A stretch of DNA of 10,462 nucleotides from IMG/VR virus record IMGVR_UViG_2698536535_000003. One strand, written 5' to 3'. The DNA comes from a virus. Taxonomy: Duplodnaviria; Heunggongvirae; Uroviricota; Caudoviricetes. The position numbers were made by a program, and so were the translations under genes. The notes below the pieces were generated by a model, which worked only from the letters and a program-made list of their open reading frames with translations, was not told the DNA's origin and ran no database searches. Shown here one piece after another: positions 262 to 10,462 of this stretch (position 1 is the stretch's first letter; every line of letters starts with the position of its first letter).

Positions 262-403
262 AAAATCTCCGGCTAAAGTGTCGGAGCGTTTGTAATGTGA
301 AAATTGATTGTGACGCATAGAAAATGATGATTTTTCTATAAGATTCAATCAATTAGTAATGGTCGTAGGTGATGGCATTAACACGAGATTAATCGAGTGT
401 TTT

Positions 404-422
404 ACTCCTATTATCGGCACCA
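404..422 (+). other. Putative att core: 19-bp segment matching a tRNA 3' end (acceptor/T-arm ending in CCA), located just beyond the 3' end of int
   Basis: ACTCCTATTATCGGCACCA at 404..422 matches what I recall as the 3' end of tRNA-Thr (thrW), the known P22 attachment target. A second 10-mer GGTCGTAGGT at 361..370 matches the adjacent upstream tRNA segment but is separated by 33 bp of unrelated sequence. No complete tRNA is present in 330..422. Confidence 0.45.
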
Positions 423-436
423 TTTAAATCAATAAG

Positions 437-1600
437 TTACACATCATTAGTACCTTCCTTATTTTTTGACTGGGACAAATTTGGGACCGATGGGTTCAGG
501 ATCGAGTCTATTTGCCGTGCGTGTTCGGTAAGGTGATTAGGTGCAAGGTGAGCATATCGACGAACCATTTCGATAGACTCCCAGCCTCCCATTTCCTGTA
601 ACACTGACAACGGGACTCCGGCTTGAACCAGCCAACTTGCCCAGGTGTGTCTCAAGTCGTGAAATCTGAAATCATCAATACCAGCCCGTCTCAGAGCCGC
701 TTTCCAGGCTGTGTTTGCGTCATACCGCATCTTCCTTACTGTTGGCGCTTTCGTTCCGTCTGGTTTGGTACAGCTTTCCTTGTACACAAATACCCAACGG
801 TGATGATTACCGATTTGTTTTTTCAATACGCGACATGCAGTATCATTCAGCGCAACGCCAATTGCGCGGTTTGATTTACTCTCTTCCGGGTTTATCCATG
901 CCACCCGGCGCTGCATATCTATTTGTTGCCATTCAAGGTTGATGATGTTCGAGCGTCTTAAGCCTGTTGCCAGTGCAAATTCAACAACAGACTTTAATGG
1001 CTCCGGACATTCATCAATCAGCCTTTGTGCTTCATGGGGCTCCAGCCAGCGGATCCGTTTATTCTTTGGTTGAGGCACTTTAATAATTGGTGCCTTATCG
1101 AGCATTTTCCATTCACGCTCTGCGGCTCTTAGCAGGGCCTTTATAAATGAAAGATGCGTAGCCTTCGTTGCAACGGACGCTGGTTTTGGCGTGTATTCTG
1201 GAACAGGTTTCCCTTTTTTTCTGCATGCTTCTGCCCTGAGTTTCCAGTTTTCCTCATGACGCCGGTTCGTCATTTTCTGCATTGCTGAATAAATTTTTGA
1301 TTCAGTAATGTCTCTTAGTTGCATTCCTGCGAAATGTTGAAGCCAGAATCCGATCCGGCTTTTGTCATCGTCCAGTGATTTCTTATGTGCTTTCTCTTCG
1401 AGCCACCTGACACACGCTTCCTCAAACGTCATATCAGGTATTTCACCAAGTTTGCTGACCCGCCATGCTTCAGCCTTTAGCTTGTCATGGAGCTCTGTCG
1501 CCTGCCTTTTGTCCTTTGTTCCAAGAGACTGTTTAAATCTTTTACCGTTCGGCAATGTGAAACTGGCGTACCATATTTCACTTCTGCGGAAGAGTGACAT
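437..1600 (-). CDS. int: Tyrosine-type site-specific integrase (P22 Int-like, 387 aa)
   Basis: ORF-track protein with C-terminal catalytic-region motifs ([10 protein letters not shown]..., [33 protein letters not shown]). From memory it is near-identical over its length to phage P22 Int. ATG at 1600 with AGAGGAAAG upstream; TAA stop at 437..439. Confidence 0.95.
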
Positions 1601-1827
1601 TTTCTTTCCTCTGTTATGCCATCACCCGCGCTCACCTTGATAGTATGCAGCGGAGACTGAAGCGCCGCAATGCAGGCTTGTCGCGTTGTGAGGTAAGGAG
1701 ATTTTGGTTTAGTGGGGTCTTTGCGTGTTGCCTGTAGGCGGCCTGTTCGTATCCAGTTGGTGGCGGTTGGTCTGGATATCTTAAGAAACTGACAGGCCTC
1801 ATCGAGTGTGAGGCTGTATGATTCCAT
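1477..1827 (-). CDS. xis: Excisionase (P22 Xis-like, 116 aa), overlapping the int 5' end
   Basis: Internal ATG at 1827..1825 ([32 protein letters not shown]...) preceded by GAGG with a 5-nt spacer. The track start at 1857 is a GTG with no RBS. The 124-nt overlap with int and the 116-aa length match my memory of P22 xis. Confidence 0.8.
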
Positions 1828-2077
1828 GGTTACCTCTGCTTTTTGAACGCATGTCACGTAACTTCTTAATGTGTTCTGCCGTTTCGATCTCTTCTGCTAT
1901 CCGATCTGCATCAGCTTTATTCACAGGTTCAAAGTCATGATTAAAGCGGAACATGCTGGCGATACATGTTCTGCCTTTTCGGATGTAGTGAACTTTGTTG
2001 TGGGTAGAACGCAGGATTTTGCAGGGAGTGCCGTGGTGGTCGACGTACCAGGTGTTAGGAAAAATGATTCTGAACAT
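1799..2077 (-). CDS. Hypothetical protein (92 aa), early-left accessory gene
   Basis: ATG at 2077..2075 with GAGGTG upstream; co-oriented and tightly packed with flanking genes; overlaps the xis start by 29 nt. No recognisable family. Confidence 0.5.
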   Translation of the reverse strand: MFRIIFPNTWYVDHHGTPCKILRSTHNKVHYIRKGRTCIASMFRFNHDFEPVNKADADRIAEEIETAEHIKKLRDMRSKSRGNHGIIQPHTR

Positions 2078-2124
2078 TTTTACACCTCAGTTGGACGATG
2101 TTGAAATTTGCTGCTTTGAGGCCA

Positions 2125-2343
2125 TCACAGTCCCCATTGTTTGTTCTTAAGTTCGATCTCCTCCTGGCAACTTGCACAAGTCCGACAACCCTGAACAGCC
2201 AGGCGTCTTCGCTCATCTATCGGATCGCCACACTCACAACAATGAGTTGCGGATACAGTCTGGTAGTTCAGACGACGCATTTTTATTGCTGTATTGCGCT
2301 GTAATTCTTCGATTTCTGATGCTGAATCAATGATGTCTGCCAT
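2125..2343 (-). CDS. TraR/DksA-family C4 zinc-finger protein (72 aa)
   Basis: Paired cysteine motifs CCECGDPI and CRTCASC in a roughly 70-aa protein, the size and Cys spacing of TraR-like proteins found in the early-left region of lambdoid phages. ATG at 2343. Confidence 0.7.
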   Translation of the reverse strand: MADIIDSASEIEELQRNTAIKMRRLNYQTVSATHCCECGDPIDERRRLAVQGCRTCASCQEEIELKNKQWGL

Positions 2344-2395
2344 CTTCCATTAATCCCTGAATTGTTGGTTAATACGCTTGAGGATGAATGCGAAC

Positions 2396-2419
2396 AATAA
2401 AAAAGGAGCCTGTAGCTCC
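2396..2419 (-). terminator. Candidate intrinsic terminator (minus strand)
   Basis: Stem GGAGC (2405..2409) / GCTCC (2415..2419) with a 5-nt loop; on the minus-strand RNA it is followed by UUUUUUAUU (plus-strand A-run 2396..2404). Lies between the 2442..2723 gene and the TraR-like gene. Confidence 0.4.
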
Positions 2420-2441
2420 CTGATGATTTTGCTTTTCATGT

Positions 2442-2723
2442 TCACCGTTCCTTAAAGACGCCGTTTAACATGCCGATCGCCAGGCTTAAATGAGTCGGTG
2501 TGAATCCCATCAGCGTTACCGTTTCGCGGTGCTTCTTTAGTACGCTACGGCAAATGTCATCGACGTTTTTATCCGGAAACTGCTGTCTGGCTTTTTTGAT
2601 TTCAGAATTAGCCTGACGGGCAATGCTGCGAAGGGCGTTTTCCTGCTGAGGTGTCATTGAACAAGTCCCATGTCGGCAAGCATAAGCACACAGAATATGA
2701 AGCCCGCTGCCAGAAAAATGCAT
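2442..2723 (-). CDS. Hypothetical protein (start uncertain: TTG 2756, ATG 2723 or ATG 2657)
   Basis: ORF-track frame 2442..2756 begins with TTG (plus-strand caa at 2754..2756). In-frame ATGs at 2723 and 2657, neither with a strong SD. Co-oriented in the early-left operon. Confidence 0.4.
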   Translation of the reverse strand: MHFSGSGLHILCAYACRHGTCSMTPQQENALRSIARQANSEIKKARQQFPDKNVDDICRSVLKKHRETVTLMGFTPTHLSLAIGMLNGVFKER

Positions 2724-2733
2724 TCCGTGGTTG

Positions 2734-3291
2734 TCATGCAGCCTCCCGACGGGCAAGAATCCTTGAGCCGAACGCCATCAACTCTCCACGATCAACGGTC
2801 GTAAAGTGGCAGTGTGTACGGGGGTATGGGTGCCAGATAATGAGCATCGAGCCTTTATTATTTCCACTGACGGGTTTCTCAGTGAGTGGGTTAATAAATG
2901 CCAGTCGTCCTGCCGTGATGAATCTGACCTCACTGGCGGTTTGTATCGCTTCATGAAACCATCCGACAGATGTGTCAGCAGGCAATAACATTACACATCC
3001 CACACTACTGAATTTGTTTTCAGTGGCTGCCTTTTTCACAAAAGGGGAAATATTGCTGTATGGTGGATTCAACCAGACATAACCAGAGGCATATCCCATT
3101 GCTTCAGGCCATGAAGTGGTTAATGTGTTCTGCTCCTGTGAGATAAAAAGCCGACATAGTCGGTTTTTTTCGCTGGCGGCAGCATCAAGTTGAAAAACGA
3201 ACTCTGCATTAAGCGCAGCAAAAATCTCTGGTGGTGTGCGCCAGCTGTCGCGATGTTCGGCAGGAGTATTGCTTCCGGTGAAATCAGTCAT
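2734..3291 (-). CDS. Phage-type DNA N6-adenine methyltransferase (orphan, no cognate restriction enzyme in window)
   Basis: 185-aa product with NPPY catalytic motif (WLNPPYSN) and an N-terminal region (RDSWRTPPEIFAALNAEFVFQLDAAA) typical of small phage Dam-like amino-methyltransferases. ATG at 3291. Confidence 0.8.
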   Translation of the reverse strand: MTDFTGSNTPAEHRDSWRTPPEIFAALNAEFVFQLDAAASEKNRLCRLFISQEQNTLTTSWPEAMGYASGYVWLNPPYSNISPFVKKAATENKFSSVGCVMLLPADTSVGWFHEAIQTASEVRFITAGRLAFINPLTEKPVSGNNKGSMLIIWHPYPRTHCHFTTVDRGELMAFGSRILARREAA

Positions 3292-3445
3292 ACAGCCCCC
3301 GTTTATTATTTATCGCCTCAGCCAGCCGCTGTGCTTTCAGTGGATTTCTGATAACAGAAAGGCCGGGAAATACCCAGCCTCGCTTTGTAACGGAGTAGAT
3401 GAAAGTGATCGCGCCTACCCGGATATTATCGTGAGGATGCGTCAT
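3284..3445 (-). CDS. Small hypothetical protein (53 aa), translationally coupled between exo and the methyltransferase
   Basis: Hand translation from ATG 3445..3443 gives [53 protein letters not shown], stop TGA at 3286..3284. Its ATG overlaps the exo stop (ATGA), and GGGGAG lies 8 nt upstream. Below the length cut-off of the ORF track. Position is analogous to the small orf immediately downstream of exo in lambda. Confidence 0.5.
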
Positions 3446-4122
3446 CGCCATTGCTCCCCAAATACAAAACCAATTTCAGCCAGTGCCACGTCCATTTTTT
3501 CGATGAACTCCGGCACCATCTCGTCAAAATTCGCCATGTACTTTTCATCCCGCTCAACCACGACATAATGCAGGCCTTCACGCTTCATACGCGGGTCATA
3601 GTTGGCAAAGTACCAGGCATCTTTTCGCGTCACCCACATGCTGTACTGCACCTGGGCCATGTAAGCCGACTTTATGGCCTCGAAACCACCGAGCCGGAAC
3701 TTCATGAAATCCCGGGAGGTAAACGGGCATTTCAGTTCAAGGCCATTGCCGTCACTGCATAAACCATCGGGAGAGCAGGCGGTGCGCATACTTTCGTCGC
3801 GATAGATGATCGGGGATTCAATAACATTTACGCCGGAAGTGAACTCAAACAGGGTTCTGGCGTCGTTCTCGTACTGTTTTCCCCAGGCCAGTGCTTTAGC
3901 GTTAACTTCCGGAGCCACACCGGTGCAAACCTCGGCAAGCAGGGTGTGGAAGTAGGACATTTTCATGTCAGGCCACTTCTTTCCTGAGCGGGGCTTTGCT
4001 ATCACGTTGTGAACTTCTGAAGCGGTGATGACGCCGAGCCGTAATTTGTGCCACGCATCATCCCCCTGTTCGACAGCTCTCACGTCGATCCCGGTACGCT
4101 GCAGGATAATGTCCGGTGTCAT
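3442..4122 (-). CDS. exo: Lambda-type 5'-3' exonuclease (Red alpha, 226 aa)
   Basis: Protein begins [40 protein letters not shown] and ends GFVFGEQWR; from memory near-identical to lambda Exo at the same length. ATG at 4122 overlaps the bet stop (ATGA). Confidence 0.97.
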
Positions 4123-4904
4123 GCTGCCACCTTCTGCTCAGTGGCTTTTTGTTTCAGGAATCCAAGAGCTTTCACTGCTTCGGCCTGTGTCAGTTCTGAC
4201 GATGCACGAATGTCGCGGCGAAATATCTGGGAACAGAGCGGCAATAAGTCGTCATCCCATGTTTTATCCAGGGCGATCAGCAGAGTGTTAATCTCCTGCA
4301 TGGTTTCATCGTTAACCGGAGTGATGTCGCGTTCCGGCTGACGTTCTGCAGTGTATGCGGTATTTTCGACAATGCGCTCGGCTTCATCCTTGTCATAGAT
4401 ACCCGCAAATCCGAAGGCCAGACGGGCACACTGAATCATGGCTTTATGCCGTAACATCCGTTTGGGATGCGACTGCCACGGCCCCGTAAATTCTCTGCCT
4501 TCGCGGGTTTTGAATGGTTCGCGGCGGCATTCATCCATCCACTCGGTAACGCAGATCGGATGATTGCGGTCCTTGCGGTAAATCCGGCATGTACAGGATT
4601 CATTGTCCTGCTCAAAGTCCATGCCATCAAACTGCTGGTTTTCATTGATGATGCGGGACCAGCCATCAACGCCCACCACCGGAACGATGCCATTCTGCTT
4701 ATCAGGAAAGGCGTAAATTTCTTTCGTCCATGGATTAAGGCCGTACTGGTTGGCAACGATCAGTAATGCGATGAACTGCGCATCGCTGGCATCACCTTTA
4801 AATGCTGTCTGGCGAAGAGTGGTGATCAGTTCCTGTGGGTCGACAGAATCCATGCCGACACGTTCAGCCTGCTTCCCAGCCAGCGTTGCGAGTGCTGTAC
4901 TCAT
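4119..4904 (-). CDS. bet: Lambda-type single-strand annealing protein (Red beta, 261 aa)
   Basis: Protein begins [11 protein letters not shown] and ends [11 protein letters not shown]; from memory near-identical to lambda Bet at the same length. ATG at 4904. Confidence 0.97.
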
Positions 4905-4909
4905 CCGTT

Positions 4910-5206
4910 TTATACCTCTGAATCAATATCAACCTGATGGTGAGCAATGGTTTCAACCATGTACAGGATGTGTTCTGCCATGCGCTCCTGAAACTCAACA
5001 TCGTCATCAAACGCACGGGTAATGGCTTTTTTGCTGGCCCCGTGGCGTTGCAAATGATCGATGCATAGCGATTCAAACAGGTGCTGGGGCAGGCCTTTTT
5101 CCATGTCGTCTGCCAGTTCTGCCTCTTTCTCTTCACGGGCGATCTGCTGGTAGTGACGCGCCCAGCTCTGAGCCTCAAGACGATCCTGAATGTAATAAGC
5201 GTTCAT
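4910..5206 (-). CDS. gam: Gam, host RecBCD inhibitor, short form only (98 aa)
   Basis: [21 protein letters not shown]...[10 protein letters not shown] matches lambda GamS from memory. ATG at 5206 is preceded by AGGAGG with a 6-nt spacer. The reading frame upstream is closed by an in-frame TAA at 5261..5263 with no intervening start codon, so the longer lambda-style ORF cannot be made here. Confidence 0.95.
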
Positions 5207-5281
5207 GGCTGACCTCCTGAAAATGGCTGTGAAAATATCGCCCGCGAAATGCCAGGCTGATTAGGAAAACAGGAAAGGGGA

Positions 5282-5692
5282 TTAGTGATTTAGGCCGTTG
5301 CCGCGTCCGTCGAGAAAAACTTCCACGAGCAAATCACGGGTATAAGTGCGCTCGATGCCGCGATGCAGATATAGCCGTCCGCGTAAATTAGCTGATGCAG
5401 TCCAGGTACCATCTTTGTGTTTGACCAGCATTCCTGGCATGACCGCACCGCGATTAACGGTCTGCGTTCCGTAATGTTGATGAACCATAAAAACTCCTGC
5501 CCGTAAGCTGGGCTGCTGAACATATATAGACTTCTGCGCGTATTCAGGCGGTGGATGGCCGCCGGTTGTCATAACTAAGCCGCCTCGTTGAAGCGACTGA
5601 GGTATGAAGTGTTGAGTTGATTTCAGCTGGTCACACCGACGTTCACGCGTCCGCTTCACCCCTCGCACTCCCCGGAGCCTGCTGAAATTCAA
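5282..5692 (-). CDS. Hypothetical protein in the first position of the pL operon (N slot); arginine-rich N-terminus; start codon uncertain
   Basis: ORF-track frame starts at a TTG (5692); candidate GTG starts at codons 8 and 11 and an ATG at 5572. N-terminal segment [15 protein letters not shown] is arginine-rich, loosely like ARM motifs of N antiterminators. No family recognised. An alternative-frame ORF (5290..5523) overlaps it. Confidence 0.35.
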
Positions 5693-5710
5693 GCTGCGGA
5701 TCTAAGCGGT

Positions 5711-5760
5711 CATCGCAACGGTGAATCAGGTGGTTGCCGTATCGTTGTGTTGTTGCGATG
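5711..5760. repeat. 9-bp perfect inverted repeat (CATCGCAAC ... GTTGCGATG) with 32-nt spacer in the pL leader region
   Basis: CATCGCAAC at 5711..5719 and its exact reverse complement GTTGCGATG at 5752..5760. Lies between the putative pL and the first early-left ORF. Confidence 0.5.
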
Positions 5761-5766
5761 AATTTA

Positions 5767-5830
5767 TTTAAAACTATAGTTGTTTTATCGTCAACAACAA
5801 AAGTTGTTTTACTGGTTGTTTTAGATATAA
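5767..5830 (-). promoter_or_regulatory. Putative pL promoter with overlapping oL operator half-sites
   Basis: On the minus strand TTGACG (5794..5789), 17-nt spacer, TTAAAT (5772..5767). The region carries repeated GTTGTT/AACAAC half-sites (AGTTGTTttatcgtcAACAAC, AGTTGTTtt, ACTGGTTGTT x2) that match the arms of the oR palindrome at 8424..8448. Confidence 0.4.
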
Positions 5831-5928
5831 CTGGTTGTATTTAGGATGGATTTATTTTGTGACTTGCATCGCATAGCGATAACTGAAGGGATGTCGTGGT
5901 GGTTATTTGAACGGTTTGTGTGATGAGG

Positions 5929-5961
5929 GGAGGCAAAAGAAAACCCGGCACGGTGGCCGGG
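5929..5961 (-). terminator. Intrinsic (rho-independent) terminator closing the repressor-moron operon
   Basis: GC stem CCCGGC (5944..5949) / GCCGGG (5956..5961) with a 6-nt loop; on the minus-strand RNA it is followed by UUUUCUUUUG (plus-strand 5929..5943 is A-rich). Lies 36 nt downstream of the DUF3037-like gene stop. Confidence 0.75.
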
Positions 5962-5996
5962 TTATTAATAAGGAATATCACATACAAAAATAAATT

Positions 5997-6824
5997 TTAA
6001 ACTTGGGGAAGTATTTTTTTTGCAAAATCAATAGTTTCTTTGTGGTTGGATGCAGGTATATGATTTATTTTCTTAGCATCCATAGTTCTCTTTATGATGT
6101 CAATAACTTTGCTTTGGCCTGAGTTTGGTGATTCAGGAGTTTCAATTGTGAATAAAATGTCATCAAGTGAAAGCAGGTTTTCTTCTGCTGCTCGAGTTAT
6201 TCTCATCACCCAAGTATCACTATGCTCCATCATTTTTCCTGGTTCAGCTTGAGTGAATGCCAGAGGTTTGATGGCACATTGGATCCTGTCATGCTTCTTG
6301 GCGACCAATGGCATTGAGAACTTTGCGAAATACCCATCAATGGTTGCTTGTTTGAAGACGTTCTTCAATCCATCTATTCTATCGATACTTCGTTTTAGCT
6401 CTCTGGCTAGAACATCTTCACGGCGCTCTTTTGTGTAGTCAGAGTGGTTTACATATTTATTGTAAATGCGGGCCAGCTCTTCTTTTGGGTTTTCGCTGAG
6501 AATCACTCTCGTAGAACTGAACTGAAAAATTGATTCTTTTTTGTTTGTAAAATATCTGAAGAATTGTGCAAGTTGTTGATGTCCAACAATCTGGGTCGCA
6601 TGCATTTTTGCGAATTGTAGTTCTCTTTGTATTGAGTCTTTTGCTACAGGGAAAATACAATCATCATGGAAAAAATTCTTTACACGAGAGTCATTTCGCT
6701 TTGTGAGCTGGAAATCAAAGTAATTTTCTTTTGGCGCGCACAGAAGTACGCCTATGTTTGCGAACTCTTCAGTCTCCGCATAAGGCGCATAGCGAACGAT
6801 GCTATATAGGCATGGAGTTGTCAT
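5997..6824 (-). CDS. DUF3037-like protein (275 aa), second gene of a two-gene moron
   Basis: Track ORF starts at a TTG (6839); ATG at 6824..6822 overlaps the stop of the upstream gene (ATGA). The N-terminus MTTPCLYSIVRYAPYAETEEFANIGVLL resembles the conserved N-terminal signature I recall for DUF3037-family proteins. GC content is about 33% in sampled 60-nt windows versus about 55% in bet. Confidence 0.7.
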   Translation of the reverse strand: MTTPCLYSIVRYAPYAETEEFANIGVLLCAPKENYFDFQLTKRNDSRVKNFFHDDCIFPVAKDSIQRELQFAKMHATQIVGHQQLAQFFRYFTNKKESIFQFSSTRVILSENPKEELARIYNKYVNHSDYTKERREDVLARELKRSIDRIDGLKNVFKQATIDGYFAKFSMPLVAKKHDRIQCAIKPLAFTQAEPGKMMEHSDTWVMRITRAAEENLLSLDDILFTIETPESPNSGQSKVIDIIKRTMDAKKINHIPASNHKETIDFAKKILPQV

Positions 6825-7570
6825 TCTATTGCGCTCCAAAATTCATCACAATCACCTTTGTCTAGCGTAGTGCAGACAAAAGGTAAAAACTCCTCATCTA
6901 CTATCCACTCTTCTGGAATTTCGTCAAGGATAGCAGGAAGCTTGTGTAAACTGTTAACGACCCTCTGGCGGTACTCTACGCGATCCACTAAATCATATTG
7001 CCATTTGCGGTTACCAGGGCCGTACACGTGCACAGAAAAATCTTCAGGTCCAGCATTCTGATCAAATGAGAGATTATGGTCAATCAGATAATACTTATCG
7101 TTACTGATGTCATAAAGGATGTTAACGTTTCCACCTTTGTCAGTAAGCGTTCTGTCTGCATTTAATATCCATTTATCAAAAACATAGATTAATTTTTGCT
7201 GTTCGACTGGGATGATCGTTTCGTTTCTTGACTGCGTAAACGTTAACGCTATTGCACCGTCAATGAACAATGAAGCAAAGGCATATCCTGTACAAATTTG
7301 TTGCTGCAGATCAGGTGAGTACTCTATAAGTTCCTCTGGCACAAATACGATTTTAAAGTCAGGTAAAGGAAGGCCGATATCATTAGCCAAACATGCCGAA
7401 ATGAACTCAGCTAAGAGATTTTTCGGGGGCATTGATGGTTTTGACTTCAAAACATACAACTGCCCATCATCACATTTGCAAAGAAATGGCTGAGTGGAAC
7501 CTTCATTGATGCGACGTATTACCTCAACGACATTAGGTATTGCACTATTGCTGCTCGCTACGCACTCCAT
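6821..7570 (-). CDS. Atypical protein kinase-fold protein (HipA/PI3-4K-like motifs, 249 aa), first gene of a two-gene moron
   Basis: Track start is a GTG at 7573; the second codon is ATG (7570..7568) with AAGGG 6 nt upstream. Motifs: a nucleotide-binding-like N-terminal segment (INEGSTQPFLCKCDDGQLYVLKSK, with Lys in YVLK), a catalytic-loop-like FDKWILNADRTLTDKGGN, and a downstream LIDHN metal-binding-like segment. Stop TGA at 6823..6821 overlaps the next start. Confidence 0.65.
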   Translation of the reverse strand: MECVASSNSAIPNVVEVIRRINEGSTQPFLCKCDDGQLYVLKSKPSMPPKNLLAEFISACLANDIGLPLPDFKIVFVPEELIEYSPDLQQQICTGYAFASLFIDGAIALTFTQSRNETIIPVEQQKLIYVFDKWILNADRTLTDKGGNVNILYDISNDKYYLIDHNLSFDQNAGPEDFSVHVYGPGNRKWQYDLVDRVEYRQRVVNSLHKLPAILDEIPEEWIVDEEFLPFVCTTLDKGDCDEFWSAIE

Positions 7571-7692
7571 CACTAACCCTTATGTGATTCAAGTCTTCCA
7601 TCTCATTACTCCGCATCTCAAAGAGCGGTTTAACACTGCGTGTTTAAAGAAAAACAACAGGCCTATTGCTGTAACTGTTTTTTAGCCTCACT

Positions 7693-8382
7693 TTAACCAT
7701 GCTTCCTATATGTTTGCGGCATGCTCCCAATAACCTTACCGAAGATGAACACCCGGTTCATCTCGTCTTTCTCGATCGGGTCCCACGGTGAGTAGCTCTT
7801 GTTATCAGAAATAACCAGCAGCTTATCCTTCATCATTTGCAGGCGCTTTACATGGGCGGTGTCGTCATACAGAAACGCATAGATACCATCACCGTCGAAA
7901 GATTTAACCGTGATATCAACGAACAGCAGATCACCTGGTTCGATCGTTCCTGACATGCTGTCACCACGCACGTTAATGATGCGGATATTTTCTGCCTTCC
8001 TACCATCGAACATGTGACGAGCATCGTCAAACGAGTACTCAACCGAGCGTAGAACTTCTACAAACTCACGGTTGATGACTCCCGGCCCGGCACTCACTTC
8101 TATATCAAGAACGTCAATCTTAAAGTATTTGGAATGGCTGACAGTTGATTGTATTGGTTGCACTGTACTGTCTGACATATTTCCAACGCCAGAAGATAAC
8201 CATTCTGCGCGCACACCCAAAGCGTTCGCGATCTCCACGATTTTAGTTGTTTGGTTAGCTTTCCCTGTTTCGATTTTCTGAATAGCAGCTTGGCTAACCC
8301 CGACCAAATCCCCAAGCGCCTTTTGTGTAAGGCCTCGCGCTAATCTGGCTTCTTTAAGTCTTTCTGAGAGTGTTGTTTTCAT
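7693..8382 (-). CDS. cI-type prophage repressor: N-terminal HTH-XRE DNA-binding domain plus C-terminal S24 (LexA-like) autopeptidase domain
   Basis: From ATG at 8382..8380: MKTTLSERLKEARLARGLTQKALGDLVGVSQAAIQKIETGKANQT (HTH), then VRGDSMSGTIEPGDLLFVD (Ser nucleophile) and AHVKRLQMM (catalytic Lys). The track start at 8448 adds 22 N-terminal residues with no support. No SD before the ATG. Confidence 0.85.
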   Translation of the reverse strand: MKTTLSERLKEARLARGLTQKALGDLVGVSQAAIQKIETGKANQTTKIVEIANALGVRAEWLSSGVGNMSDSTVQPIQSTVSHSKYFKIDVLDIEVSAGPGVINREFVEVLRSVEYSFDDARHMFDGRKAENIRIINVRGDSMSGTIEPGDLLFVDITVKSFDGDGIYAFLYDDTAHVKRLQMMKDKLLVISDNKSYSPWDPIEKDEMNRVFIFGKVIGSMPQTYRKHG

Positions 8383-8486
8383 AGACCAAATGTACAACCA
8401 AGGTTTTATTACATCAAACGAAAATGGTTGTTGACTAAAAACAACCATGGTTTTAATCTTGATTCAGATTAACCACGGAGGTTGTT
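8383..8486. promoter_or_regulatory. Divergent immunity control region (oR operators with pRM-like and pR-like promoters)
   Basis: Perfect palindrome ATGGTTGTT-N7-AACAACCAT at 8424..8448 overlaps a plus-strand TTGACT (8431..8436) with a 17-nt spacer to TAATCT (8454..8459), then GGAGG (8477..8481) and the cro ATG at 8487. On the minus strand TTGATG (8417..8412), 17 nt, TACATT (8394..8389) ends 6 nt before the repressor ATG. An additional half-site-like ACAACCAaGGTT sits at 8394..8405. Confidence 0.55.
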
Positions 8487-8717
8487 ATGAACCCAGCAAT
8501 CAAAACAGCGATCAATATCGTTGGTTCACAAAAGAAACTGGGCGATGCCTGCGAAGTTTCACAGCAGGCCGTCTATAAGTGGCTTCACAACAAAGCAAAG
8601 GTATCCCCTGAACATGTCGGCAGCATTGTTACGGCTACTGGTGGAGTTGTGAAGGCATACCAGATTCGCCCGGACCTTCCGAAGTTGTTTCCACACACCG
8701 AAAAGAACGCAGCTTAA
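8487..8717 (+). CDS. Cro-like HTH regulator (YdaS-family-like, 76 aa)
   Basis: Small protein divergent from the repressor and immediately after the operator region; LGDACEVSQQAVYKWL is HTH-like; the C-terminal ATGGVVKAYQIRPDLP resembles YdaS-type Cro proteins as I recall them. Strong RBS. Confidence 0.8.
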   Translation: MNPAIKTAINIVGSQKKLGDACEVSQQAVYKWLHNKAKVSPEHVGSIVTATGGVVKAYQIRPDLPKLFPHTEKNAA

Positions 8718-8729
8718 ATTTCCATTTCA

Positions 8730-8775
8730 CGCTCTTTAACAATAAGCAATCAACTTAACAGACTGATTAACAGTC
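8730..8775 (+). promoter_or_regulatory. Putative nutR-like site: boxA-like CGCTCTTTA plus boxB-like hairpin
   Basis: CGCTCTTTA at 8730..8738 (lambda boxA consensus CGCTCTTA). Perfect hairpin GACTG-ATTAA-CAGTC at 8761..8775 (5-bp stem, 5-nt loop, no U-run after it), in the cro-cII intergenic position where lambda carries nutR. Confidence 0.3.
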
Positions 8776-8798
8776 AATTCAAACTAAAGGAATTAATT

Positions 8799-9338
8799 AT
8801 GCAACCAATTACATACCAACAGACTAGCGGAATTACCCCGGCTGCGCTGATAAATCGTTCTCAAACAAAACAGGCGACAGGCCACGAAAAAATCCGTGAT
8901 GCCGTTCGCGCCTGGTCGGCTGCAGATAATCAGGATGTTGTTGCCGCACTCATTGTGAATGAGTATCGGGAGCAGGGCGGCGGCACCATCGATTTCCCTG
9001 ATGATGTCAGTCGTGCACGCCAGAAGCTGTTCCGCTTCCTCGATAACAAATTCGATTCTGAAAAATACCGAAATAACGTGCATGAACTGACCCCGGCAAT
9101 TCTGGCGGTACTACCGCTGGAATATCGCAGCCACCTGGCTGAGCAGGATAGCTTCATGGCCCGGTTGGCTGAAATGGAAAAGGAACTCAGTGAGGCAAAG
9201 CAGGCGGTCATTCTCAACGCACCACGCCACCAGAAACTGAAGGAAATGAGTGAAGGTATTGTGTCGATGTTTCGTGTGGACCCGGATCTGGCTGGTCCAT
9301 TAATGGCGATGGTTACCACCATGCTGGGGGCAATATGA
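8799..9338 (+). CDS. YdaT-family-like protein occupying the cII position (179 aa)
   Basis: ATG at 8799 with AAGGA upstream. Segments EYREQGGGTIDFP and LTPAILAVLPLEYRSHL resemble YdaT-type proteins as I recall them; follows a YdaS-like cro. No resemblance to lambda CII. Confidence 0.55.
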   Translation: MQPITYQQTSGITPAALINRSQTKQATGHEKIRDAVRAWSAADNQDVVAALIVNEYREQGGGTIDFPDDVSRARQKLFRFLDNKFDSEKYRNNVHELTPAILAVLPLEYRSHLAEQDSFMARLAEMEKELSEAKQAVILNAPRHQKLKEMSEGIVSMFRVDPDLAGPLMAMVTTMLGAI

Positions 9339-9424
9339 CAGATTCAGAAATGGCGAAAGTCGGTCTGCGGGAACAGAACCGACTTTCAGGTGCAAATCGT
9401 AACGCACTCATTGCGGGAGGAATT

Positions 9425-10354
9425 ATGGCAAACACTGCTGAGATATTCAATTTTCCAGTGCCGGATGTGGCACAAAAGGAGCCGCGCGTGGCAGATCTCG
9501 ATGATGGTTATACGCGCATTGCAAATGAGTTGCTGGAAGCTGTAATGCTGGCCGGATTAACACAGCACCAGCTTCTGGTCTTCCTGGCTGTCATGCGCAA
9601 AACATATGGCTTTAATAAAAAACTGGATTGGGTGAGCAACGAGCAACTTTCCGAGTTGACCGGGATATTGCCGCACAAGTGTTCTGCTGCAAAAAGTGTT
9701 CTGGTAAAGCGTGGGATTTTTATTCAGAGCGGGCGGAATATCGGCATTAATAATGTGGTCAGTGAATGGTCAAAATTACCCGAATCAGGTAAGAAAAATA
9801 AAGTTTACCTGAAAGAGGTAAATTTACCTGAATCAGGTAAGAAAAGTTTACCCAAATCAGGTAAAGGCACTTACCCGAATCAGGTAAACACAAAAGACAA
9901 ACTAACAAAAGACAATATAAAACCTTATTCGTCCGAGAATTCTGGCGAATCCTCTGACCTGCCAGAAAACGACCTTCCTGTGGTGAAAGCGGATGCTGCG
10001 ATTCAGAGCGGCAGCAAGTGGGGGACAGCAGAAGACCTGACCGCCGCAGAGTGGATGTTTGACATGGTGAAGACCATCGCGCCATCAGCCAGAAAACCGA
10101 ATTTTGCAGGGTGGGCTAACGATATCCGTCTGATGCGTGAACGTGATGGACGTAACCACCGCGACATGTGTGTACTGTTCCGCTGGGCCTGCCAGGACAA
10201 CTTCTGGTCCGGTAACGTGCTGAGTCCGGCCAAACTCCGCGACAAGTGGACCCAGCTCGAAATCAACCGGAACAAGCAACAGGCTGGCGTGACAGTCGGC
10301 AAACCAAAACTCGACCTGACAAACACTGACTGGATTTACGGGGTGGATCTATGA
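9425..10354 (+). CDS. O: Replication initiator, lambda O-like (origin-binding protein)
   Basis: From ATG 9425 (GGGAGG 4 nt upstream): MANTAEIFNFPV...RVADLDDGYTRIANELLEA...LVFLAVMRKTYGFNKKLDWVSNEQLSELTGILPHKC parallels the lambda O N-terminal domain. The gene contains the iteron array and its stop overlaps the P start (ATGA). The track start at 9335 is probably a 5' over-extension. Confidence 0.88.
   Translation: MANTAEIFNFPVPDVAQKEPRVADLDDGYTRIANELLEAVMLAGLTQHQLLVFLAVMRKTYGFNKKLDWVSNEQLSELTGILPHKCSAAKSVLVKRGIFIQSGRNIGINNVVSEWSKLPESGKKNKVYLKEVNLPESGKKSLPKSGKGTYPNQVNTKDKLTKDNIKPYSSENSGESSDLPENDLPVVKADAAIQSGSKWGTAEDLTAAEWMFDMVKTIAPSARKPNFAGWANDIRLMRERDGRNHRDMCVLFRWACQDNFWSGNVLSPAKLRDKWTQLEINRNKQQAGVTVGKPKLDLTNTDWIYGVDL
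9776..9887. repeat. Replication origin iterons (ori-lambda-like), five 17-bp palindromic repeats followed by an AT-rich segment
   Basis: TTACCCGAATCAGGTAA (9776..9792), degenerate TTACCTGAAAGAGGTAA (9805..9821), TTACCTGAATCAGGTAA (9824..9840), TTACCCAAATCAGGTAA (9848..9864), TTACCCGAATCAGGTAA (9871..9887). Each contains the palindrome TACCNGA-A-TCAGGTA. A-rich tract 9888..9925 follows. All lie in frame within the O-like gene. Confidence 0.85.
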
Positions 10355-10462
10355 AAAACATCGCCGCACAGATGGTTAACTTTGACCGTGAGCAGATGCG
10401 TCGGATCGCCAACAACATGCCGGAACAGTACGACGAAAAGCCACTGAACCGCCCCGGGTTTC
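10351..10462 (+). CDS. P: Replication protein P-like (DnaB helicase loader), 5' partial, continues past window end
   Basis: ATG at 10351 overlapping the O stop; translation MKNIAAQMVNFDREQMRRIANNMPEQYDEKPLNRPG matches the lambda P N-terminus from memory. Confidence 0.9.
   Translation, partial: MKNIAAQMVNFDREQMRRIANNMPEQYDEKPLNRPGF

Follow-up and report, generated by a model that had tools for sequence, protein, structure and literature searches.

In the Islander/TIGER framework, integrative elements at a tRNA gene are recognised by an intact tDNA plus displaced fragments, and tandem arrays of such elements are possible (PMC4383910). Some island ends carry damaged tDNA fragments, with a single-base deletion 3 bp before the discriminator (PMC4383910). 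The tRNA-Thr gene thrW is known as a hot spot of integration (PMC7545054), and the core that phage SfI uses there was defined as a 46-bp block by PCR of attP, attB, attL and attR (PMC3636060).

We analysed a stretch of 10,462 nucleotides from a Caudoviricetes record (IMGVR_UViG_2698536535_000003), referred to below as the window, in which a split match to a tRNA lies beside an integrase gene at 330-436. It is highly probable that this feature marks a joint inside a series of integrative elements arranged in tandem at thrW. From left to right, the chromosome would carry an intact thrW (about 12 kb to the left, outside the window), an island of about 12 kb, the joint, and an SfI/P22-type lambdoid prophage whose int end faces the joint. 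Both the intact thrW and the right end of the prophage lie outside the window and were seen in related genomes only. On every point tested, the structure agrees with a tandem island array at a tDNA, and the joint is an ordinary, already known and understood kind of structure.

With the Islander/TIGER arrays (PMC4383910) the locus shares an intact tDNA at one end, the proximal one, as found in genomes with the identical junction; co-oriented distal 3' fragments, which are 404-422 for the island and the 46-bp right end for the prophage (in 22AR0322 and AR_452); and one integrase per element, at 1-261 for the island (partial) and at 437-1600 for the phage. Both crossover sublocations are also present: the 46-bp block of the phage lies on the anticodon side, the block of the island in the T-loop/acceptor part. 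Nothing essential sets the locus apart from these arrays; its sole extra is the decayed remainder of a tRNA further upstream, within the island arm. The right end of CP4-6 in E. coli K-12 (the intF side) occupies the same chromosomal position, before yagP/paoD, and is similar in that its integrase gene points away from a 3' fragment of thrW and the host DNA beyond it is the same. However, its thrW fragment is contiguous over 49 nt (nt 28-76), IntF has only about 24% local identity, and the arms are without significant similarity. Among islands with damaged fragments, a CP4-like island in B20127 matches the described type exactly (TATCG-CACCA) and adjoins the same P22-type int, whereas the fragment in the window is undamaged and its damage-like feature is a 33-bp interruption further upstream.

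The tRNA fragment and the phage side of the joint

The 19-mer ACTCCTATTATCGGCACCA occupies positions 404-422 on the + strand. It is the sole match in the window even at three mismatches, no match arose in 200 shuffles (0/200), and it is exactly nt 58-76 of E. coli thrW, from the T-loop to CCA. As reference we used the tRNA-Thr(CGU) gene as annotated in complete E. coli genomes, GCCGATATAGCTCAGTTGGTAGAGCAGCGCATTCGTAATGCGAAGGTCGTAGGTTCGACTCCTATTATCGGCACCA. An earlier note, made from the letters of the window, had described the 19-mer as resembling a tRNA 3' end finishing in CCA and had put forward the 10-mer GGTCGTAGGT at 361-370 as matching an upstream segment of tRNA-Thr; both points were confirmed, the 10-mer being exactly thrW nt 45-54. 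In intact thrW, TCG alone lies between the two segments, whereas the window has 33 bases there (371-403, 36% G+C). The order in the window is ...CAATCAATTAGTAATGGTCGTAGGT GATGGCATTAACACGAGATTAATCGAGTGTTTT ACTCCTATTATCGGCACCA TTTAAATCAATAAGTTAC ACATCATTAG.... ARAGORN found zero tRNAs in the window, and the DNA left of 404 is an integrase N-terminus rather than a tRNA 5' half, in agreement with the note's remark that neither an intact tRNA nor a 5' half is present to the left. The two outcomes that the note had named as contrary to its reading, the lack of any host tRNA match and a complete tRNA directly left of 404, were not seen.

Directly after CCA, TTTAAATCAATAAGTTAC (423-440, + strand) is the 18-bp sequence that natively follows thrW in E. 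coli, and it also forms the int side of an SfI-type attP. Matches to phages (SfI, phi458, SfII, SfIV, SfV and P22; 99% for SfI and 81% for P22) all start exactly at 404 while host homology extends to 440, giving a 37-bp overlap at 404-440. A 387-aa ORF on the - strand at 437-1600 encodes an SfI/P22-type integrase (Pfam Phage_integrase, 5e-48) that is identical to SfI Int at 386/387 residues (99.7%) and to P22 Int at 348/387 (90%); its stop codon (437-439) falls inside the shared 18 bp. The excisionase gene xis (1477-1827, - strand), placed by transfer of the SfI annotation (record L003, 2574-2924, offset 1097), overlaps the int start, and an HTH_17 domain was found on the ORF at 1477-1857. The window therefore holds a P22/SfI-type int-xis module, with an orthologous Int and xis upstream of it. 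An SfI-like lambdoid early-left, immunity and replication region follows (441-10442), with exo, bet, gam, genes for a DUF3037 protein and a HipA-family kinase, an S24 repressor and a replication gene, and the whole of 404-10442 is 98.2% identical to a prophage that adjoins thrW in AR_452.

The interval that separates the repressor from the recombination genes includes two overlapping ORFs (5997-7573, - strand) that match the DUF3037 protein and the HipA-family kinase of the 98%-identical AR_452 prophage. This pair may be toxin or defence cargo in the immunity region.

Both SfI attP and P22 attP contain a contiguous 46-bp block, ATTCGTAATGCGAAGGTCGTAGGTTCGACTCCTATTATCGGCACCA, and SfI attP continues into TTAAAATCAATAAGTTAC, one mismatch from the host 18-mer. 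At the joint the last 19 bp of this block are contiguous with int, and the other 27 bp are replaced by the island arm. In AR_452 the same phage lineage stands directly beside intact thrW and is identical to the window from ACTCC onward; the right end of that prophage consists of an SfI-like arm plus the 46-bp block. The canonical attL of SfI/SfII/SfV/P22-type prophages at thrW is thus like the joint in its integrase, in its xis-int-core order and in a sequence identical from ACTCC through int, but it has the whole tRNA to its left, whereas the tRNA identity of the joint stops at nt 58 behind the island arm and 27 of the 46 core bases are missing, including the P22 core centre.

These comparisons bear on the idea that the joint is the attP of a free phage, a canonical attL beside the tRNA, or an att region that a 33-bp insertion rearranged upon arrival of the prophage. 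Such a reading would account for the nearby int and for the presence of a CCA-ending core, but we give it next to no probability. A free-phage attP has a phage P arm left of the core; here phage homology stops at 404 and the left side is chromosomal in 3405 genomes, consisting of island DNA with another integrase. A canonical attL has a complete foldable tRNA ending at CCA; here the sequence left of 404 is not thrW and holds no tRNA. The true attP and attL of the window's phage lineage were both seen, and both differ from the joint. Finally, prophage-free genomes have the identical split sequence through 440, which also contradicts the rearranged att region that the earlier note had offered as one possibility. 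The note's main proposal, an attP-like or internal junction copy of the core rather than the tRNA-proximal attL, is upheld for the internal junction and for the exclusion of attL, thrW lying 12.4 kb to the left in genomes with this junction. Its attP-like half fails: SfI attP, P22 attP and the right end of the lineage all have the contiguous 46-bp block behind a phage arm that is unlike 262-351.

GenBank records of P22 annotate a 23-bp attP core, ATGCGAAGGTCGTAGGTTCGACT (ATGCGAAG-GTCGTAG-GTTCGACT), composed of two imperfectly inverted 8-mers around GTCGTAG. We placed the strand-exchange region of P22-type integrases by this GenBank feature, so that exact cleavage sites are inferred; papers citing Smith-Mungo 1994 yielded no P22 Int cleavage coordinates. 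The joint keeps the last 3 bp of the 23-bp core and lacks 20/23, and with just these 3 bp it is probably not a working P22-type attL. The upstream GTCGTAG was also considered as a secondary insertion point of P22-type phages and was rejected, since none of 5426 genomes matched a synthetic spacer-less junction in a single piece.

Hosts and phages differ from one another in the 18 bp after CCA, which read TTTAAATCAATAAGTTAC in the window and in EC195, TTAAAATCAAAGAGTTAC in K-12 (record L006, 3756-3773), TTAAAATCAATAAGTTAC in SfI and GTTAAATCAAATACTTAC in P22. The T at position 425, which is A in SfI, was discarded as a crossover marker because the window's phage lineage has T at a canonical attL as well.

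The island and the thrW array in related genomes

In genomes with the identical junction (GENOMIC23-002, 22AR0322 and an ST131 strain), tRNA-Thr is found 12.4 kb to the left, after proA (7924-7999 in record L001, 9058-9133 in record L016). There, thrW is directly followed by TCAAGAAAATCAATAACTTAGC..., the other end of the island of about 12 kb, whose last gene encodes a 425-aa integrase. The 19-mer is present both at thrW and at the joint. The sequence common to attL and attR of the island is ACTCCTATTATCGGCACCAT and nothing more, and because the two ends share this alone, the 19-mer can be taken as the thrW 3' fragment displaced by the island. Together with one further T, this fragment (404-423, + strand) forms a 20-bp direct repeat with the left end of the island. 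To judge from the repeat, the 20-bp block is where the island integrase must exchange strands, and it represents a putative attR. The empty site, thrW plus TTTAAATCAATAAGTTAC plus CCCATATTT, was found in 955 of the 5426 genomes, so the 18 bases after CCA are native host sequence. The island's other end carries AAATCAATAACTTAG, which is similar to these 18 bp.

The left edge of the window holds the N-terminal 87 codons of the island's tyrosine integrase (1-261, - strand), which runs off the edge. In full-length relatives it measures 425 aa and is annotated as a tyrosine-type recombinase (records L001, L002 and L011), and Pfam finds Phage_integrase, DUF6538 and SAM_5 in a full-length copy. Its local identity to K-12 IntF and to P22-type Int is merely 24-28% (about 28% to the phage int of the window). 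A PHROGs scan of the island returned phage-tail-like and replication-like fragments only. Complete E. coli genomes commonly carry segment 20-440, split included (3405 of 5426, 63%), and most of those that do have host DNA, CCCATATTTAAATACACC..., after 440 and then yagP'/paoD.

Positions 1-19 of the window align to no E. coli genome that holds 20-440, and at the edge the island int frame reads ...ENTLELFEPPRKS where the relatives have ...ENTLELLRSKAKYAK. The outermost bases of the window seem to mark a breakpoint or a mosaic joint, and since bases 1-19 diverge from all relatives, the island copy may be truncated or mosaic.

The right arm of the island (262-403), which combines the P arm of the island attP with the 5' leader and upstream region of its int, travels with the island. 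A hairpin lies in the int leader at 267-286 (- strand; from a terminator-like scan), CUCCGAC...GCCGGAG, whose 3' arm includes a likely Shine-Dalgarno GGAG 6 nt before the ATG. RNA folds of the leader gave z of about -2.6 in both variants of the island (the second is described below), and the stems differ between the variants at the same place, CUCCG/CGGAG in the window and CCCCU/GGGG in the sister island. The hairpin may serve translational control of the island integrase. A sigma-70 promoter scan of 200-520 found zero sites.

Arrays of several kinds occur at this locus. In 22AR0322 the far end of the prophage is the full 46-bp block, behind which follows a third element, a P4-like satellite with DRT3, and the array reads thrW, island, 19-mer joint, prophage, 46-mer joint, satellite. 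Both array orders were found, with the phage proximal in 25 genomes and the island proximal in 6. Two other island types, the AR_0128 type and a CP4-like type with a damaged fragment, likewise meet the same int at such a joint.

The next elements of the thrW arrays (record L011, 1-6460, from 22AR0322; record L001, 29791-35797) are P4-like satellites with integrase, psu and ogr/delta. One of them carries the antiviral reverse transcriptases Drt3a/Drt3b, and the other an RNA-directed DNA polymerase and an integrase disrupted by IS3. In the ST131 strain NZ_CP103710.1 (record L016, 20108-20251), the 19-mer of the island is followed only by a 144-nt remnant of an int pseudogene and then by yagU. 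The pao operon is absent, and an IS1 lies in the island. This locus shows in-place decay of the distal prophage and of flanking host genes. In B20127 (record L010, 2490-2545), a damaged thrW fragment, TCCTATTATCG-CACCA, links the same P22-type int to the end of the CP4-like island on its cbtA/yeeU side.

Origin of the split tRNA match

The split tRNA match belongs to the island and not to an event in the prophage: it is found in prophage-free genomes and in a sister island, which makes it an island property. The sister island (AR_0128 type) encodes a 407-aa integrase that is 52% identical to that of the window's island and has the same Pfam architecture, and its layout is TGCGAAGGTCGTAG, then 35 bases, then ACTCCTATTATCGGCACCA. 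The two arms have 75% mean column identity, GGTCGTAG is invariant between them, and the distance from GGTCGTAG to ACTCC is 35 bp in both. The earlier note had called the interrupted homology unusual. This impression did not last, given that 20-440 is present in 3405 of 5426 genomes and that the split is inherited in the sister island of other genera.

A scan for GGTCGTAG-N20-50-19-mer, with one genome per species, gave four matches. The sister arm was near-identical in Enterobacter, Citrobacter and Kosakonia, each time with different DNA directly after ...CACCAT, and the window-type arm was found in another Escherichia species. With AR_0128 included, the sister island is known from four genera with differing right flanks. 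Because the flanks differ after CACCAT, the arm and the split move with the mobile island, and exchange would take place inside the 19-20-bp block.

Is the upstream 10-mer itself derived from a tRNA, or did it arise by chance, with the 19-mer as the only tRNA-derived piece? By itself the 10-mer is a match of only moderate improbability: among 5000 shuffles of 262-403, 59 do equally well or better against the 5' part of the tRNA, and with one mismatch allowed it is expected 0.24 times in the whole window. Its context makes a chance origin very improbable. The 10-mer is collinear with the 19-mer and on the same strand, and it extends into a gapped alignment over 352-370, ATTAGTAAT-----GGTCGTAGGT against ATTCGTAATGCGAAGGTCGTAGGT, that was reached by 13 of 3000 shuffles. 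At the equivalent position the sister arm matches thrW at 14/14 positions, TGCGAAGGTCGTAG, a score reached by 1 of 3000 shuffles, and it extends the tRNA identity on the other side. From these two shuffle results we regard the 352-370 match as genuine tRNA-derived sequence. The feature at 352-370 (+ strand), ATTAGTAAT plus GGTCGTAGGT, is accordingly described as a decayed tRNA-Thr relic that corresponds to thrW nt 31-54 with a 5-nt gap and holds the 10-mer.

The tRNA identity reaches beyond the shared part on one side in the window (GTAATG...GGTCGTAGGT) and on the other in the sister island (TGCGAAGGTCGTAG), as expected if a longer tRNA-identical stretch had been present in an ancestor and had decayed. 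The island attP arm once had such a longer block, split by about 33 bp before the two known variants diverged. The 10-mer is a decaying relic of it that lies outside the joint and is carried wherever the island goes. Since the block that is exchanged lies to the right of the interruption, the regenerated tRNA never contains it, and it has no cost. The conserved split relic in the island arm is the only small curiosity of an otherwise ordinary structure.

The spacer between relic and 19-mer (371-403, 33 bp) is island sequence and bears no relation to the tRNA. In neither variant does it resemble the 5' part of thrW, and the MAFFT hint of a second decayed tRNA copy was dropped since the scores of both variants are at or below the shuffle mean. 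By manual count, about 24/35 positions are common to the spacers of the two variants. The spacer includes an imperfect 20-bp palindrome just left of the 19-mer (381-400; ACACGAGATT/AATCGAGTGT), whose outer ACAC...GTGT is conserved in the sister island (ACACAAGATTTATCGCGTGT) and which may be bound by a protein as part of the island attP arm. Left of the relic, the arm (262-351) gave no score above shuffles against the SfI, P22 and CP4-6 arms, and it was accordingly rejected both as a remnant of a P22/SfI-type P arm and as a homologue of the CP4-6 arm.

We also considered that the relic GGTCGTAG, which holds the annotated P22-type core centre, is a half-site bound by the island integrase or by a co-resident P22/SfI-type Int rather than neutral debris, an improbable reading. 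If true, insertion of the island between thrW and a P22-type prophage would split attL and lock the prophage in, and excision of the two elements would be coupled, a satellite-like interference with the integration module of a helper.

Order of arrival at thrW and its consequences

The most likely history has the phage first and the island last. The phage would have integrated canonically into thrW, and the island would then have entered, by its own T-loop-to-CCA block, the thrW copy regenerated at the left end of the prophage. This would have split the phage attL, with the core left at thrW and the P' arm at the joint. An island that inserted last is the newest element and adjoins the tRNA. 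That it probably did so is suggested by the joint lacking 20/23 bp of the P22 attP core. A complete primary thrW site is always present in the island-proximal genomes, the phage-proximal order is four times commoner (25 vs 6), and the island family is mobile. The CP4-like joint of B20127, with only about 23 identical bases and a damaged fragment, also counts for phage-first. Against this explanation, both histories predict identical sequence at both prophage ends, and there is no discriminating polymorphism; for the same reason the right end of the prophage was rejected as a marker of arrival order.

In the opposite order, the island was resident and an SfI-like phage entered the displaced fragment, either through Int at a secondary site in 404-440 or through RecA-dependent recombination over the 37 bp. 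We see this as possible although rather unlikely. The island, present in 3405 of 5426 genomes, is largely fixed, while a phage stands behind it in only 6. Presence in 63% of genomes implies mostly vertical inheritance, which with faster prophage turnover favours a phage that came after the island. Several island types have a P22-type int at the distal position, and remnants in ST131 and in other strains point to repeated occupancy and decay there. The island fragment does offer 37 bp of perfect identity for phage entry, but that block is without 20/23 annotated P22 core bp, central GTCGTAG included, and the same genomes provide a complete primary site in intact thrW. The prevalence of phage-proximal arrays, 25 against 6, likewise speaks against it, and in the CP4-like case the identity of about 23 bases is very short for RecA. 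Entry of the phage first and of the island last therefore remains the favoured history.

For annotation, a CCA-ending tRNA fragment beside an integrase without a nearby tRNA need not denote an att site of rearranged or exotic form. A lone fragment of this kind at a hot spot like thrW usually marks where two stacked elements meet, and the intact tRNA then lies one element further away. When an island that uses the T-loop-to-CCA part of the gene inserts beside a prophage that needs the variable-loop/T-stem part, the phage core is parted from its arm sites and the prophage should be immobilised; with its core separated from the P' arm, it should be unable to excise alone until the island leaves. 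At least four of the six island-proximal genomes hold prophage remnants only, which would fit such immobilisation of the prophage by the island without proving it.
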